From positions 23,002,001-23,066,000 of the forward strand of contig CM069163.1 of assembly GCA_035221665.1 (NCBI GenBank): 64,000 bases of DNA, read 5' to 3'. The notes beneath the pieces are model-generated. The model made no database searches, was not told where the DNA came from, and saw only the letters and a list, made by a program, of their open reading frames with translations. This stretch comes from Okamejei kenojei (taxonomy: Eukaryota). Positions within the stretch are counted from its first letter, which is position 1. Each line of letters starts with the position of its first letter. Of the stretch, positions 49,001 to 60,200 are shown in pieces. A program made the position numbers and the translations under genes.

Positions 49001-50759
49001 TGATTTTCTTCTTTTTCCTCTTGACCCGGAGTAGCATGTTGGTTGAGGGGAACCGGTTACCACACACAGGGTGGCAGTAAGGATCCTTTGGACGGAAGTG
49101 TAGTTCAAGTCTCCTGCTCGGATCAGCGTAAATCTATTCCAAAATAAACAGATTTTAAAGAATTATTATCATAAGCACCAGTTGGCCCTTCAGTAGATCG
49201 ATTATTTGAAAAATCAGAGGACAAGGTTTAGTGTAGCAGATGCTTTGCTCAATGTCAATTTGCTCAAACCTAAGCAAATATGTATACACTCCTGTGTTCT
49301 GTGGGATGATTTAGGGCTCATTTGAGATGGCAGATGCGCCAGCAATTAAAGAAAAACACATCTGGAATTCAATTTCCAATGTGCAACTCTCCCAGTAGGC
49401 AGACTAGATCTTTGCACTCAAATCAATGGATGCGATTTGAATGGCAAACATAACTCTAAAAGAGCCCCACCAGCGAGCCAAGTAACCTTGTCCCTAATTT
49501 CAGCACAGCAAGTGAAGGCAACTTTGTTTCACCTGTAAAACACAAAATGCTAGCGTAACAGCGGGTAAGACATCATCTATGGAGGACGTGGACAGGTGAT
49601 GTTTTCAGTCGGGATACTTCAGATTTCCGATCTGAGAGTGGAGCACAACTTCTTCACAGTAGGCATACTTTTAGAAGATTTAGAAGTGGAACAGTAAAAT
49701 GGAAACACAAGGAACTACAGATGCTGGAATCTTATATAGAACACAAAGTGATGGAATAACTCAGCGGGTCAGGCAGCACCTCTGGAGATTATGGAAAGCA
49801 TTTTGTTTTCTACAGATGCAATGTAGAAAGCATTTTCTCTTCGATAGATGCACTACAGAAGGCATTTTATCAGGATGTATCACAGCATGGTTCGGGAACA
49901 GCTCCATCCAAGACCGCAAAAAAATTGCAGAGCGTTGTGGACTCCAACTGCACTTCACGCTGCCTCGGCAAGGCCACCAGCATTATCAAGGACCAATCTC
50001 ACTCCGATCACTCCCTCTTCTCCCCTCTCCCATCAGGCAAGAGTACAGAAGTTTGGAAACACATACCTCCAGATTCAGGGACAGTTTATTCCCAGCTGTT
50101 ATCAGGCAGCCCCTCACACCAGCAAGAGTACAGTCTTGACCTCCCATCTACCGTTTTGGAGACCTTTGAACTATCTTTAATTAGACTTTATCTTGCACTA
50201 AATGTTGTACCCGTTTTCCTTTATTTGTACACGGAGGACGGCTTGATTGTTACCATGTATAAACTTTTCTTTGATTGGATAATACGCAACAACAAAAAAC
50301 TTTTCACTGTACCTCGGTACACGTGATAATAATAAACTAAACTAAGGGTCTCGACCCGACTAAGGGTCACCCATCCCTTTTCTCCAGAGATGCTGCTTGA
50401 CCCACTAAGTTGCTCCAGATCTCCGTGTTTAACTTCAGATTCGAGCATCTGCAGTTCTTTGCGCCTCCTTGTTGTGGCGAGAACCCGCAGGTTGGAGGGA
50501 GAGGTTAAGGCCACTCCTGGGGTTGAGTGGAGAAGGCCGGAGCGCCCCGACTCACCCGGGAGACCCCCTCCTCTCCGCCCAGCGTCTCCAGCATCTTCAG
50601 CGGGTCGCGGACCACCCCGGGGTACTCGGCGCACACCAGTCGCTTCTCGGCGTCAAAGTGCACTTTCACCGCCGTGGTCTGCAAACCGGCAAACTTGGCG
50701 GCGGAGCCCTGCTCCGGTGTGAGCTTCAGCACAGGCTCCGTCTCCATGACGGCCGCCAT
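34097..50759 (-). CDS. GTF3C5: General transcription factor IIIC subunit 5 (TFIIIC63), complete 11-exon CDS
   Basis: Minus-strand exons: 50759-50556 (RLVCAEYPGVVRD), 49133-48905 (RLELHFRPKDPYCHPVC), 48643-48445 (GMSDFQF...PPPIFSR), 46853-46658, 46021-45917 (IRPVWSRNAV), 44995-44881 (TGPWRSLWVRFGYDPR), 43518-43438, 42015-41918, 36738-36656 (LPPYRQMFYQLCDL), 35885-35743 (ERDGWCLPKTSD), 34248-34097 (acidic tail, ENEMETEILDYI*). All junctions are GT-AG. Confidence 0.96.
36130..36420 (+). mobile_element. tRNA-derived SINE
   Basis: ggtggcacagcggtagagttgctgcctcacagcgcc...gttcgatcc head; (ctaaa)n tail. Confidence 0.8.
36949..41639 (+). mobile_element. 5'-truncated, degenerate L1-clade LINE (APE + RT + C-terminal Zn finger), antisense in GTF3C5 intron 8
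   Basis: ORF2 fragments from ~37676: SYNV..., NIYAP, GGDFN, SRID, SDHAP, KSPGTDG, YRPISLL, QTGFIPGR, SLDAQKAFDRV, LFADD, FRYLG, CWRQC..H..HIFWDCP. AATAAA at 41615 then a poly-A tail. 12-bp TSD GAAAAGAACCAG at 36937-36948 and 41640-41651. Confidence 0.92.
45020..45890 (+). mobile_element. CR1 LINE 3' fragment containing a nested short SINE
   Basis: Degenerate CR1 RT C-terminus (FRGHGFKVKG) interrupted at ~45515-45645. Confidence 0.75.
47836..48147 (+). mobile_element. CR1 3' end
   Basis: Highly similar to 6997-7293; ends in tttctatg repeats. Confidence 0.85.
49830..50340 (+). mobile_element. Rex1/Babar-type LINE 3' end
   Basis: RCTTEGILSGCITAWFGN, KATSIIKDQSHSDHSLFSPLPSGK, RFRDSLFPAVIR; ends with an aataaactaaactaa tail. 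Confidence 0.75.
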
Positions 50760-50864
50760 GGCAGCATCTGGGCCCACGCCTAACTACGTCCGGCCTACAA
50801 CTAGGGGGAACAAACGGTCACGATGTGGGTTCCGCTTCACATTAACTTATATACTTGGGCTTGA

Positions 50865-50987
50865 GAGTTTCTGGTTAAACTATGGGCAGAGGTGCCTCCA
50901 AAATAGTACTATTCACTGAGGGGCGCAGCCCCGAAGTGAATAGTACTATTTGGAGGCACCGAGGCCCATAGTTTAAACCAGAAACTC
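50865..50987. repeat. Imperfect ~123-bp palindrome (hairpin 1) at the left end of the Crypton-like element
   Basis: gagtttctggttaaactatgggc..ggtgcctccaaaatagtactattcact-ga-ggggc-gca-gcccc-ga-agtgaatagtactatttggaggcacc..gcccatagtttaaaccagaaactc. Confidence 0.92.
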
Positions 50988-51057
50988 GAAATAAGGCCAA
51001 GGATATTTGTTTTATATTTGGGATCAAACATTTACAAGAATAATTGCTTACCTTAAG

Positions 51058-51265
51058 TTGTTTACAAATTTACATCGCGCGCTATACTCCCGAGTGAAGT
51101 AGAGAAATTATACGCAAGCGGGAGAGCGGGAGATTTTCCGAAAATGCCCTTTCAGCAAGATCGCCCGCTGAAAGGGCATTTTCGGAAAATCTCCCGCTCT
51201 CCCGCTTGCGTATAATTTCTCTACTTTACTCGGGAGTATAGCGCGCGATGTAAATTTGTAAACAA
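51058..51265. repeat. Near-perfect palindrome: two 99-bp arms, 10-nt loop (hairpin 2)
   Basis: Arm 51058-51156 is the reverse complement of 51167-51265 with one mismatch; loop is aagatcgccc. Confidence 0.95.
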
Positions 51266-51290
51266 GTTCAATCGTCTGCTCGATACGAAG

Positions 51291-52577
51291 ATGGCGGCGT
51301 CCAGTACTAGGCGATTTGGTCAGTTTACTGACGAAGATTTGGATGACTTTATTACTTCAGTGGATAGTGAAAACACGCAAAAACAAATCAAATATGGAAT
51401 GTCAGTTTTTCGGCAATTTTGTTCGGAGATGGGAGTTAAAATTGAGCAGATTTTAGGCCTCGAAGACCTTGATGGAATCTTGTCACAGTTCTACGCTGGA
51501 GCGCGAAACAAGAAGGGAGAGCTGTACACGAAGAAGTCAATTCAAGCGATTCGGTTTGCGCTTCAACGCCATTTTATGAAAACCAGAGGAGTGGACATTG
51601 TGAAAGCTGAGCAATTTTCTCGTTCTAACAAGATTTTTAAGGCTCTTCTTGTAAAACTGAAGACCAGCGGTAAGGCCAATGTAAAGCATTACCCCCCTAT
51701 CACTAATGATGATATGGCACTTATCCAAGCCAGTCTCAATTTAAACACGGCTGTTGGTCTGCAAAGAAAGGTGTTTCTAGATACAATGATATACTTTGCA
51801 AACCGTGGAATGGAAAATGTGAGACAGATGAAAGGTGAGGATTTTGTTCTTCATGTGGAAGGTGACATTGAATACTACACTCTTCGTGACATGCATACCA
51901 AAAACCATCAAACTGATGAAGAGGAAAGTCAAGGAGGACAAATGCATGCTCTCAAAGGAAACCCAAGGTGCCCTGTTATGAACATGAAAAATTACTTATC
52001 CAAATTAAACCCTCTCTGTGAGTGGATGTGGCAGAGGCCAAAACAGACTGTTTCTGTTAAAGATGGACCGTGGTACGCCAATTCACCTTTGGGGAAATGC
52101 ACTCTCGCTAACATGACAAGTGTCATCTGTGAAGCTGCTGGTTGTTCAAAACATTATACGAATCATTCTTTGCGAGCAACTAGCATCACTTTGCTAGACC
52201 ATGCAGGACATGCATCTAGAGATATTATGTCTGTATCAGGTCACCGTTCTGAGACCTCGATAAAGAATTATGCACGTACCAGTGAGCATACCAAGCGCCA
52301 GATGTCTGACACCCTGTCTGCAATTCATCCTGATCAACCATCAACATCAGATGATAAAGAAAATGCTGGCATTGATGGTGATGGTGCAGATTTTGCGATT
52401 GATCTATCAAACAGTCAACTGAACGTTAAAGAGATTGTCGATCAACATCCACAACTACCACAGTCAGCACAACCACAACCGGAGCGGATTTTTAGAACAA
52501 TGAACATGAACCAGCAAAATCTCCAGCCCCATCAATACCATTTCCATGGCTGCGTTGTAAATTTTTACAACAATTAG
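51291..52577 (+). CDS. Crypton-type (DUF3504-like) tyrosine recombinase, intronless, 428 aa
   Basis: Uninterrupted ORF with a strong Kozak context (aagATGG). Tyrosine-recombinase catalytic set: R172 (FANRGME), K204 (TKNH), H292-x-x-R295 (TNHSLRAT), H318 (SGHRS), Y327. Also RCPV, WY..PLG and a C-terminal F.GC.VN motif typical of CryptonA/KCTD1/ZMYM/QRICH1-type domains. Confidence 0.9.
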   Translation: MAASSTRRFGQFTDEDLDDFITSVDSENTQKQIKYGMSVFRQFCSEMGVKIEQILGLEDLDGILSQFYAGARNKKGELYTKKSIQAIRFALQRHFMKTRGVDIVKAEQFSRSNKIFKALLVKLKTSGKANVKHYPPITNDDMALIQASLNLNTAVGLQRKVFLDTMIYFANRGMENVRQMKGEDFVLHVEGDIEYYTLRDMHTKNHQTDEEESQGGQMHALKGNPRCPVMNMKNYLSKLNPLCEWMWQRPKQTVSVKDGPWYANSPLGKCTLANMTSVICEAAGCSKHYTNHSLRATSITLLDHAGHASRDIMSVSGHRSETSIKNYARTSEHTKRQMSDTLSAIHPDQPSTSDDKENAGIDGDGADFAIDLSNSQLNVKEIVDQHPQLPQSAQPQPERIFRTMNMNQQNLQPHQYHFHGCVVNFYNN

Positions 52578-52695
52578 CCATGCATAACAAAAAACAAACA
52601 GGATGTAAATATTGTAAATAGATGTTGAAACAATGGTTTGACTTTTCAAGAAGTTTTCCCTGACTGTTTATGTTTACACTTGGATTTCATTGAAT

Positions 52696-52882
52696 TTATT
52701 CTTGTTTAAATGTTTGATCACAAATATAAATTATTCTTGTTTAAATGTTTGATCGCAAATATAAAACAAATATCCTTGGCCTTATTTGGAGTTTCTGGTT
52801 AAACTATTGCCCGGGCAGGTGAAATTATACGCAAGCGGGAGAGCGGGAGATTTTCCGAAAATGCCCTTTCAGCGGGCGATCT
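52696..52882. repeat. Right subterminal repeats of the Crypton-like element
   Basis: 35-bp tandem duplication at 52696-52730 and 52731-52765. 52729-52807 is an inverted copy of ~50968-51045. 52821-52882 is an exact 62-bp inverted copy of 51158-51219. Confidence 0.92.
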
Positions 52883-53200
52883 CCCGACGAAAGCGGCAGA
52901 GTTGGAGTCACTGCACTTGTCGAGACGAGAGGTGGCGCTGTAGCCGTGGCAGCGCGAGAGTTTCCCGTTACATGCACGCGGAGCTGTGACATGATTTCCC
53001 GACATAGTAAATGCTATTTACAAAATGTCGTCATAAAAGTGATGTCATTTTGTAAATAGTACATCGTTGGAGTGTCAGCGTGCCAACATTCTAAAATAGT
53101 TGAAATTATATCAAATCACGTGACGCTCTCTCGACCAATCGCTGGAGGATAAATGTTTGATCCCGAATATAATAACTTATATTCAAGTACTATAATTATT

Positions 53201-57205: not shown

Positions 57206-60200
57206 TTAATTCGGGTCATGATGTGTTCCGTCATAGTCCATTATGCTGAGCTGTCTGACACTTTCGGGGCTGGGTTTTTGCACTGGCACCTGCAGTTTCA
57301 AGGGGCCCAAAGAGGTGCCCAGCTCCATGTTGCATTCAGTTTTGAGGGAGTCCAAAAGGCTGTCCATCTTGGGCCGCTCATTGTCACACTGGCTTTCGCT
57401 CTTGTTCCTGAATAGCTCACGGGCACGCATCCCAAGGAAACTCTTGGAATTGGGATAGGAGCCGACAGTGACTGGTGTTGTGGGCTGCTCCAGAAAGATC
57501 ATACTTGGGGCACCCTGGCTCTGGTCCATCAGCTCAGACACCATTAGTGGTGGCTGCGCTTTCCTGTTGGGAGATCGATCAATGCTGGGGGCCATTGGGG
57601 GCTTGGTTTGCTTGTTTTTGTTCTCTGCATCCGAGGTCTCATCGAATGATTCCGAAATAACAAGGTTTTCAGCCCTATTCGTACAAGAAAAAGAGCATAA
57701 GACAAAGACATCACATTTCTGCAACTAAGAGAAGACATCCGAGCTATGCATCCGACGGCTCAGTTTAGTTTAGAGATACAGCGCGGAAACAGGCCCTTCG
57801 GCTCACCGGGTCTGCGCCGACCAGCGATCCCCGCATATTAACACAATCCTACACACACTAGGGACAATTTTTACATTTATCAAGCCAATTTACCGACATA
57901 CCTGTACGTCTTTGGAGGGTGGGAGGAAACGGGAGATTACAGCTGCAAGCACTGTCAAGCAGCAACTCTCCTGCTGCGCCACCGTGCCGCACAACTCATT
58001 ACAAACGGTTCAGCAGAAACATGCTTGATTTTCTACATTTGATTTATTACCCATCAATGGACAAAAACTAATACGATCAGTCATTTGGTGGCGTGGTGAC
58101 TTTAAAGAAATGTCAAAATTAAACTTCAGAATAAAATTATATAAACAAAACAAAAACTGTGCCCATCACACATTCTCAGTGTCGATACATTCAATAGTGT
58201 CATATTCAGAGGTGTTTGTACCCATCTTTAAAACAAAACACCCTTGCCATTCTTGTAGCCCCCTGGGGTGATATCCCTTCCCCATCGGGTGTCGACACTG
58301 GACTCTGCCCTTCAATGTCTGGCTGGGGTGATGAGAGAGCAAACTTTAAAAAAAAGTTTTAACAGTTGTTGATTTTTAAACTCAATCCTAAATGATTAGT
58401 AAGGGCATCAAAGGTTACAGCGAGAACTTTTCATTTCACTGCACATCTCATATGTGTATGTGATGAATAAACTTGACTTGACTTGAGAAGGCAGGAGAAT
58501 GGGGTTGAGGGGGGAAAATAGATATGCTATGATTGAAAGGTGGAGCAGACTTGATGGGCCAAATTGCCTAATTCTGCTCGTGTTTTATGGCCTTGTATGC
58601 AATCTCTTATCCTGATAGAGTTAAGGATTGGGCCATAAGAAACATTTTATTGATTTTTGATTTCACTAGTTCTGGTTGAGTTACATAATTATATAGCACA
58701 GGAAGCAGCCATTTGGCCAAATGTTCTATTTTATTTTAAATGCCACACTGATCTTCTATAAATTAGTTTCAATAAGGCCATCAGCATTACTTCCTATTCT
58801 TCAGGGATTACCATAGGGCATCTAGTACCTTGTACAAGGGGCATTCACTAGTTCATTGTCACAATCACACTAAATAGTGTCCCCATTCAACCTTTACACA
58901 CACGATGGTGGCAGGAGTTACCAGATAATCAGGCAAAGTGGCAAAAATTCTTATTTGCTAACTTGGAGACACGACCAAATGCATCTATTATTCAAATCAT
59001 CTATTATTCAATGGAATTAGAAAGCTAGGTGTATGGTTGGGCATCAGAAAAATAAATTTAAAAGTATTGGCAATTTAAAAAATATCGTATTTCATTGCAA
59101 GTCCCTCAGTCTTGAAATGTAACGGATAAAGTTTGTACCTATAGCAAACCCAAAAAGGCCCATAACACAAACAATTTTTAAATTAAAAAACAGGACAGTC
59201 AATAGGCTACTGCGGCAAAAATAAGTCTCATGGTCAAACTATCTCCAAACAGGAATGCCATGTATCACATTTTTGTCTAATAATTGAGTAAGTTTGAATA
59301 TTGGAAGGGTTAACATTACAGCGCTAGAACAAAGGCGACAAATTAATAAAATAATGGGTTAATTTTGAGAGATCCTAGTTTAGGTTTAGAGGGATATGGG
59401 CCAAACACAAGCAGGAAATAACTAGTGAAGATGTGGCGTGTTGGTCGGCTTGGGCAAGTTGGTCTGTCGGGCCTGTTTCTACACTGTATGACTCTAGTTT
59501 TAATAGAAGTGTAAATGATAGCCTTTCTAATGTCTGGGTGGAGTTCACTAAGTTTCTTTAACACACAAGTTGGAGCTTTCATATTTTTGGACTAGGTATT
59601 AATATTTTAGTACATGTATATATTAATTTGGGCATATGTATTAACTATATATCACCTATGTGTATTAACATATGCCCACATTTGTTCTGTAAAAGGTAGG
59701 TCTCACTCAGTTTCATGATACTTCAGTAGACAACAGTTTTCACGGGGAAAAAAAACTGCTTAGACTCATGACAAAATGCCACGATGTATCAGCTTCCTGG
59801 TCAAATTGTCCACCTCAAGAGGCAAGGTTCAGCTGATTTCTCCCCCCCCCCCCACACCTATCCATGTTTTCCAGAGAATTATAAAATTATAAAAGGACTG
59901 GACAAGCTAGATGCAGGAAAAATGTTCCCAATGTTGGGCAAATCCAGAACCAGGGGCCACAGTCTTAGAATAAAGGGGAGGTCATTTAAGAGGTTTTCAC
60001 CCAGAGAATTGTGAATTTATGGAATTCCCTGCCACAGAGGGCAATGGAGGCCAACTCATTGGATGGATTTAAGAGAGAGTTAAATAGAGCTCTAGGGGCT
60101 AGTGGAGTCATGGGATATGAGGAGAAGGCAGGCACAGGTTATTGATAGGGGACGATCAGCCATGATCACAATGAATGGCTGTGCTGGCTCGAAGGGCCGA

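Follow-up and report, generated by a model that had tools for sequence, protein, structure and literature searches.

The window analysed here is a stretch of 64,000 nucleotides from Okamejei kenojei (GenBank assembly GCA_035221665.1, contig CM069163.1, positions 23,002,001 to 23,066,000 of the forward strand), and it carries, at window positions 50849-53172, a Crypton-type transposon of 2.3 kb whose open reading frame (ORF) content, by ORF listing and domain search, is a tyrosine recombinase only. The left end of this element can fold as a single strand into a long hairpin, and we consider it probable that the fold builds a single-stranded DNA (ssDNA) attachment site, which the recombinase joins to a double-stranded target by exchange of one strand. 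On balance, we also favor the broader proposal that CryptonA elements are one-gene transposons that copy out and paste in a folded ssDNA circle, that sheared GA/GA mismatches choose the strand, and that they provide a self-sufficient integrase which exchanges one strand and acts on chromatin with no double-strand break, as an animal counterpart of integron cassettes and CTXphi. The element class is known, while its end architecture is previously undescribed and points to folded single-strand recombination. Animal Crypton ends were earlier reported as featureless, and the copy gain of an active algal Crypton was left unexplained. If the proposal is true, folded single-strand recombination, so far known from integrons and CTXphi, would extend to animals, Cryptons would be linked to the DIRS elements' internal complementary region (ICR), there would be a hint of what the ancestors of the KCTD1, KIAA1958 and ZMYM proteins bound, and a compact integrase with an ssDNA donor would be active in vertebrate cells. 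At this locus the ends are defined, the rule for targets and the position of the cut are given, and a minimal mobile unit of 450 bp and an intact enzyme are at hand, and the mechanism is therefore directly testable with oligonucleotides and one protein.

The terminal hairpin of 123 nt (50865-50987) begins 16 nt inside the element and has predicted folding energies of -55.3 kcal/mol on the top strand and -54.3 on the bottom strand (z -17.5 and -15.2), with none of 200 shuffled sequences as stable. Its tip is built as a preliminary description of this DNA had read it, with GA (50918-19), GGGGC, the triloop GCA (50925-27), GCCCC and GA (50933-34), so that a C(GNA)G triloop sits over a tandem GA/GA at 50918-50934 of the top strand; the second purine-purine mismatch of that description, AGA (50888-90) facing GAG (50961-63), is likewise present. 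A longer fold, 50849-51034, extends the stem to 50849/51009; on the way it passes another GA/GA, the third, formed by 50863-64 and 50988-89, and a bulge of 3 nt. The long imperfect hairpin at 50863-50989 thus holds three tandem GA/GA on the top strand, the two others lying at 50889-90/50961-62, next to an A.G pair, and at 50918-19/50933-34. Beneath it, the left end of the element (50849-50862, plus strand) pairs with 50990-51006 as the inner arm of the putative folded attachment site, and 51012-51034 is complementary to the far right end of the element (53150-53172, plus strand), which would form the outer arm. The internal region 50990-51034 (plus strand) accordingly matches both termini, in the manner of an ICR: at its base the fold repeats, in inverted form, the junction between right and left end, with a 5-nt core, TTGTT, at 51007-51011. 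At locus L004, a natural tandem junction gives a folded rod, about 105 bp long, that pairs across the junction, at -88 kcal/mol on the GA strand against -78.2 on the opposite strand.

The spacing of this site differs from that of its targets. A protein search identified three further Crypton families in the genome (families 2 to 4, at 34-43% protein identity; the window's element belongs to family 1). Left ends usually start with TATACAA followed by ATATAC. Where copies stand head to tail, TATACAA separates the right end of one from the left end of the next; the core thus measures 7 nt on the junction strand, against 5 nt in the internal copy and 6 nt in targets. The flanks of 61 copies define a symmetric target, ATA[G/T/A]-N6-[A/T/C]TAT. 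Among 67 family-1 right flanks the TAT arm follows a spacer of 6 in 51, of 5 in three and of 7 in one, and it stands at spacer 6 in 21 of 31 family-3 right flanks. Long variable target duplications, first suspected from loci L003 and L018, turned out to be rare exceptions. The cut register between arm and spacer is fixed by nested insertions into a target within the element itself, ATAG-TAAATG-CTAT at 53004-53017 (plus strand), where the right flanks of the inserted copies (L004, L029, L097, L101 and L103) read the element's own sequence from 53008. With cores of 7 and 5 nt against a target of 6, neither duplex copy has the target spacing, and the folded 7-over-5 hybrid brackets 6. The same 7/5/6 pattern was found in families 2 and 3 and at loci L164 and L170, and family 4 has the same 2-nt excess.

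Inheritance of the core at insertion junctions is one-sided. In family 1, where the left-junction count covers non-tandem ends (n=90), the element core TATACAA stands at the left junction exactly in 72 of 90 cases and within one edit in 80 of 90, whereas 0 of 77 right junctions have it. The family-2 core (TATACAA or TGAACAA) was found at 20 of 21 left and 0 of 19 right junctions, and the family-3 core at 32 of 38 left and 0 of 32 right. Two-strand exchange without core homology should put the core at either junction; the genomic footprint fits exchange of one strand pair only. A minority of left junctions, including that of the window copy, carry a copy of the target spacer, as would be expected from repair against the uncut target strand. 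The variant core TGAACAA was passed on in 5 family-2 copies, all of one structural class. Within the spacer, the first base is more constrained than its mirror position, the preferred base being T (p 0.009 in family 1, 0.0003 in family 3). A occurs as first spacer base in 16/60 family-1 and 2/28 family-3 targets (p 0.05, a weak difference between families whose enzymes differ), and the internal copy has A in family 1 and T in family 3 at the corresponding core position. The core lengths, set against the 6-nt target, and the left-only inheritance together support the folded ssDNA recombinase substrate suggested in the preliminary description. That description had also placed a possible recombination or replication site at the hairpin; a candidate recombination site is indeed present, at the base of the fold and not at the GA/GNA tip, and a replication origin finds no specific support.

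One-sided inheritance could also arise on a duplex route with strand bias, in which, as in the bacterial SE elements, one strand is copied out to give a duplex circle and the fold serves as a cruciform or as an accessory or regulatory site. SE elements circularize from one strand and have a 6-bp spacer (PMC9345347), a cruciform on a supercoiled circle would yield the same top-strand site, and a one-sided core requires by itself no single-stranded circle. The duplex junction (7) and the duplex internal copy (5) both miss the target spacing, however, and the conserved inverted junction copy with its one-strand GA/GA is left unexplained, which makes this route unlikely in our judgment.

Family-1 copies alone are too young to prove selection on the tip, and the other families were therefore compared. 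The tip of family 2 reads GA-GGGGC-GAA-GCCCC-GA on a stem that differs from that of family 1, and families 3 and 4 share GA-GTC-GAA-GAC-GA, which is exact in 43 of 54 ends. Families 1 to 4 hold 3, 2, 3 and 2 tandem GA/GA, respectively, and no TC/TC, with loops of GCA or GAA. Left ends number 123 in family 1, 104 in family 2 and 2451 in families 3 and 4 together. Beyond this genome, an alignment-based protein scan of metagenomes gave 80 loci, a single-protein scan none, and a scan of viral contigs no relative. A strict tip-motif scan gave just 2 matches in 215 kb, hence a looser hairpin search was used; it yielded 29 hairpins at most 1.8 kb downstream of the recombinase match, with the strand set by ORF direction alone and mismatches scored symmetrically. 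These hairpins contain 32 GA/GA and no TC/TC, AG/AG or CT/CT, and 31 of the 32 lie in a Y-GA-R context. At least one GA/GA is present in 17 of the 29 hairpins and in 9 of 14 sequence clusters (24 hairpins clustered), TC/TC in none. By comparison, 42 unrelated hairpins of the genome showed one such motif among 352 mismatches. Loops of the metagenome hairpins are mostly GNA or GNNA (GTCA, GCTA, GATA), hence not GNRA. The four families and the metagenome relatives thus bear out the earlier suggestion that the mismatches are selected and biased to one strand, and we regard the hairpin mismatches, on this comparison of sequences, as real, selected and strand-specific.

In favor of a neutral inverted duplication with mismatches inherited by descent, the young copies of family 1 cannot show selection by themselves, and accidental hairpins do arise in the element, as at 51055-51268. 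Such accidental hairpins lack the GA/GA motif, though, and four families as well as nine metagenome clusters hold GA/GA on stems unrelated in sequence, with TC/TC in none of them. A single-copy DUF3504 exon (L045:3836-5086, minus strand), which we take to be KCTD1-like, keeps R-H-R-H-Y-like motifs and has no terminal hairpin, a further point against neutrality. The metagenome hairpins and the unrelated-hairpin control largely refute the neutral account already, and we find it scarcely credible.

The behavior of the tip among copies was surveyed in the whole genome (2.76 Gb searched), which holds 123 exact family-1 left ends. Across 98 left ends in 89 loci, the tip was exact in 71 and differed by homopolymer or 1-nt variants in 13; of the 14 ends unresolved at first, 9 kept the tip, 2 had it damaged and 3 lacked it. 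The tip is therefore not randomly variable among copies, is never flipped, and recurs in other families on different stems, in line with what the preliminary description had anticipated. The absence of flip/flop isomers in the 84 resolved family-1 ends, together with the absence of a Rep domain, led us to reject a rolling-hairpin replicon of parvovirus type. The palindrome AATAGTACTATT is present in both copies as that description had placed them (50902-50913 and 50939-50950, no strand assigned). Branched folding through it, which the description had also envisaged, was rejected: the palindrome is missing in families 3 and 4, a similar motif occurs only in family 2, and such folding is thus not general among relatives. 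Direct-repeat slippage between the two AATAGTACTATT copies deletes the tip in some copies. In families 3 and 4, ATATTGCC occurs twice per hairpin arm and resembles the attachment arm AATATTG; these repeats, like the palindromes of families 1 and 2, may be accessory recombinase sites.

A tip so far from the cut could also signal replication or protection of a single-stranded intermediate, by priming or by resistance to nucleases or RPA, with the internal copy acting only as a splint for end joining. Some 70 bp separate the tip from the cut site, which puts it at a long distance from the arms bound by the recombinase; C(GNA)G loops, d(GNA) in DNA, and tandem sheared pairs in Y-GA-R context are reported as very stable DNA motifs (PMC3201870, PMC10085684). 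Against such a role, ORF listing and Pfam found no polymerase, primase or HUH/Rep domain in the element, and tips in the resolved family-1 ends show no flip/flop. Exact complementarity to the junction is what one would look for in a splint, yet in families 1, 3 and 4 the internal copy lacks 2 nt of it. We rate this explanation as quite improbable.

The structure of family-1 copies bears on a further explanation, a DIRS-like RNA route in which the transcript is reverse-transcribed in trans, the internal copy restores the ends and the hairpin is an RNA or cDNA structure. Subfamily A comprises four full copies (99.2-100% identity) with the ORF on the top strand; in subfamily B the ORF is inverted relative to A and the second hairpin is missing. 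The terminal fold is retained in both subfamilies and in the amplified deletion classes (about 449 bp, 19 copies; 529 bp, 7 copies), every one of which keeps the internal copy to at least 51025. On these sequences, subfamily A is the younger of the two forms and is still intact. An RNA route would account for an internal copy placed like the ICR of DIRS, which lies downstream of the ORF and is complementary to both termini, and for a GA strand that in subfamily B and families 2-4 runs antisense to the ORF, as a cDNA would; for DIRS-1, the cDNA made is single-stranded and antisense, and the ICR is required (PMC7192593). It is, however, hard to reconcile with the absence of a reverse transcriptase from the element, with the youth of subfamily A despite its inverted ORF, with the roughly 190 bp of unrepeated right-end sequence retained in derivatives, and with the GT-AG intron-like gaps seen in the recombinase gene of several hairpin-bearing relatives. 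An Rfam search, too, returned no family at its gathering score, the best matches being far lower. Taken together, these points leave the RNA route very improbable.

The order of events that we propose for the one-strand exchange starts when the top strand becomes transiently single, through replication, transcription or supercoiling. The GNA-capped, GA/GA-stabilized stem would then zip and pair the left junction with the internal copy, while TC/TC on the opposite strand would disfavor the mirror fold. A single exchange of top strands, in which the folded left junction recombines with the right junction, would release a single-stranded circle; the bottom strand would retain the element during this copy-out, and copy number would hence rise. 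Folding would turn the circle into a rod, about 105 bp in length, with a recombinase site at its base that bulges by 2 nt. There the recombinase would cut top strands at the border of arm and spacer and swap one strand pair with a duplex target, and host replication or repair would complete the insertion. The right junction would in turn be a new target, giving tandem and mixed-family arrays. We infer all enzymatic steps of this sequence of events from DNA sequence.

Several observations weigh against the folded single-strand reading. For the 123-nt hairpin, the folding program gives a strand difference of just 1 kcal/mol. The left junction of the window copy itself is the duplicated target spacer TAACTT and not the element core. 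Junction-spanning contigs were seen in runs X6 and X1, and tandem arrays could also yield them; the contigs show neither strand nor circles. Runs X16 and X17 contained short pieces only. Family 2 has a clean tip in just 6 of 20 copies, with the tip deleted in 5 and rearranged in the full-length copy L031, and given these losses the tip may be dispensable. The 5 cleanly tip-less copies span four structural classes, one of which also holds tip-bearing copies; this fits recurrent slippage rather than a tip-less lineage, and a need for the tip is not thereby proven. Among the metagenome hairpins, 12 of 29 (5 of 14 clusters) have no GA/GA in the aligned stem and three stems are essentially perfect, and just 5 of 24 metagenome loci checked have a right end that matches the internal copy. 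One-strand inheritance is found also in the bacterial SE elements, for which no fold is reported in the accessible text (PMC9345347).

By analogy with well-studied systems, the element would work like the attP site of CTXphi or the attC site of integrons, yet it is a member of neither group, nor of the DIRS or SE elements. The CTXphi attP(+) site used by XerC likewise consists of two inverted site copies, about 100-150 nt apart, that fold on one strand into a recombinase site (PMC3089051). Its central regions measure 12 (attP1), 7 (attP2) and 6 (dif), against 7, 5 and 6 here. There, and on our proposal here too, one strand is exchanged, the host resolves the product and a functional site is regenerated. 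CTXphi borrows the host's XerCD and a unique dif site and has its own phage replication (PMC3089051), whereas the element brings its own recombinase to a loose AT-rich target, and its circle junction would itself be one half of the site. With integron attC and IntI (PMC4792948) the element shares conservation of structure over sequence and, as proposed, a folded single strand, selectivity for one strand and replicative resolution. Strand choice in attC depends on extrahelical bases read by the I2 insertion (PMC4792948); the asymmetry of the element lies in GA/GA, the 3-nt bulge and the 2-nt core excess.

DIRS elements (PMC7192593) resemble the element in that a region downstream of the ORF is complementary to both termini, in a tyrosine recombinase and in a single-stranded DNA intermediate, which here is proposed. 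The DIRS-1 ICR is reported to be exactly complementary (PMC7192593), whereas the internal copy here is 2 nt short, and the 2.3-kb element, with the recombinase as its sole ORF, has no gag, reverse transcriptase/RNase H or inverted long terminal repeats (LTRs). The Vibrio SE elements share a tyrosine recombinase, a 6-bp spacer and, again as proposed here, top-strand-only exchange and copy-out (PMC9345347); they require four genes and carry 6 bp from the donor site, in contrast to the one gene, fixed core and conserved fold described here.

Among the closest systems are the CryptonA/DUF3504 transposons (PMC3212892), which share with the element a single DUF3504-like tyrosine recombinase, no terminal inverted repeats (TIRs), many non-autonomous derivatives and marine invertebrate relatives. 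Kojima and Jurka 2011 (PMC3212892) describe animal Cryptons without terminal repeats and cite a model of circular excision; neither hairpin nor palindrome occurs as a word in the accessible text of that paper, nor do hairpin, single-stranded and circular in that of a 2026 CryptonA paper. Relative to these descriptions, the present analysis defines the ends and the target as well as the fold and its internal copy of the junction, and most copies have no terminal direct repeat. Direct repeats of 4-6 bp at both termini, as in fungal and oomycete Cryptons, are not characteristic of the element; only a minority of copies, including that of the window, duplicate the target spacer. CryptonF-1_cRei of Chlamydomonas (PMC9977147) is an active Crypton with rising copy number and a complex, unexplained mode of transposition; it recombines CACCG with a near-identical CAYCG, whereas the present element has no homology across the 6-nt core. 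A literature search judged mostly by listings, with Repbase Reports and subscription journals outside its scope, found no published description of a hairpin or single-stranded substrate for Cryptons, nor of the folded single-strand route for animal transposons. Repbase and Dfam notes call some Eulor repeats hairpin-shaped. Human Eulor5/6 have been linked to Cryptons (PMC5753468).

The intact recombinase ORF (51291-52577, plus strand) encodes 428 amino acids and is predicted to be of CryptonA type. It matches DUF3504 (PF12012) at 30.5 bits against a cut-off of 29.7 and Phage_integrase with an E-value of 9e-6. The catalytic R-H-R-Y (R172, H292, R295, Y327) is intact, and K204 and H318 are present as well. 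The AlphaFold model of the protein (pLDDT 81) has Cre as its best fold match and IntI at rank 31, and there are no IntI chains among the profile matches to the PDB. Homologues carry the names KIAA1958-like and ZMYM2/QRICH1-like. The element has neither TIRs nor LTRs, and it is interspersed and multicopy with non-autonomous derivatives. Close relatives occur in distant hosts, among them a protein of Diadema antillarum (P0002, 75% identity) and P0001 (94%), and the marine metagenome run X13 holds a full B-type element with 32 substitutions across a piece of the ORF; both horizontal transfer and fish DNA in the sample are possible sources.

In the origin of subfamily A the ORF was inverted and sequence at both breakpoints was duplicated, so that a 102-bp palindrome now precedes the ORF. 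This near-perfect inverted duplication (51055-51268, no strand assigned), found in subfamily A only and free of GA/GA and GNA loops, is likely a by-product of the inversion. At the other breakpoint lie a second internal junction-like site in opposite orientation (52729-52807) and, at 52821-52882, part of hairpin 2 in duplicate, together spanning 52729-52882 (plus strand). The right-end region, which nearly all derivatives keep, contains a weak hairpin of 46 nt together with CACGTG and CCAAT boxes (53014-53059, 53116-53143), and family 2 has boxes similar to these. Mixed tandem arrays (L034, L042, L137, L077, L041) result where a member of one Crypton family has inserted within a member of another or at its right junction. 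A head-to-head junction of two right ends with a 6-nt spacer was seen at L103, and at G000:C14:53054487-53054668 a family-2 left end faces an exact inverted left end 180 bp off.

In the window, the element is flanked on its left by the target arm ACAT and the 6-nt spacer TAACTT (50839-50848, plus strand) and on its right by the spacer TAACTT and the arm ATAT (53173-53182, plus strand). The insertion is polymorphic, and the empty site was found, with a 10-letter overlap, in contigs from two runs of the same species (X1, X2). It lies about 84 bp upstream (50759-50843) of the likely ATG of a host gene whose first coding exon (50505-50759, minus strand) resembles a TFIIIC subunit. The exon has a Pfam match to Tau95_N (E 7.6e-4, under the cut-off), and we take the gene to be GTF3C5/Tau95-like; the insertion may affect its promoter. 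An ORF at 57206-57724 (minus strand), without a Pfam match, resembles the last exon of TSC1, which it presumably is, TSC1 being the neighbor that we would expect for GTF3C5.
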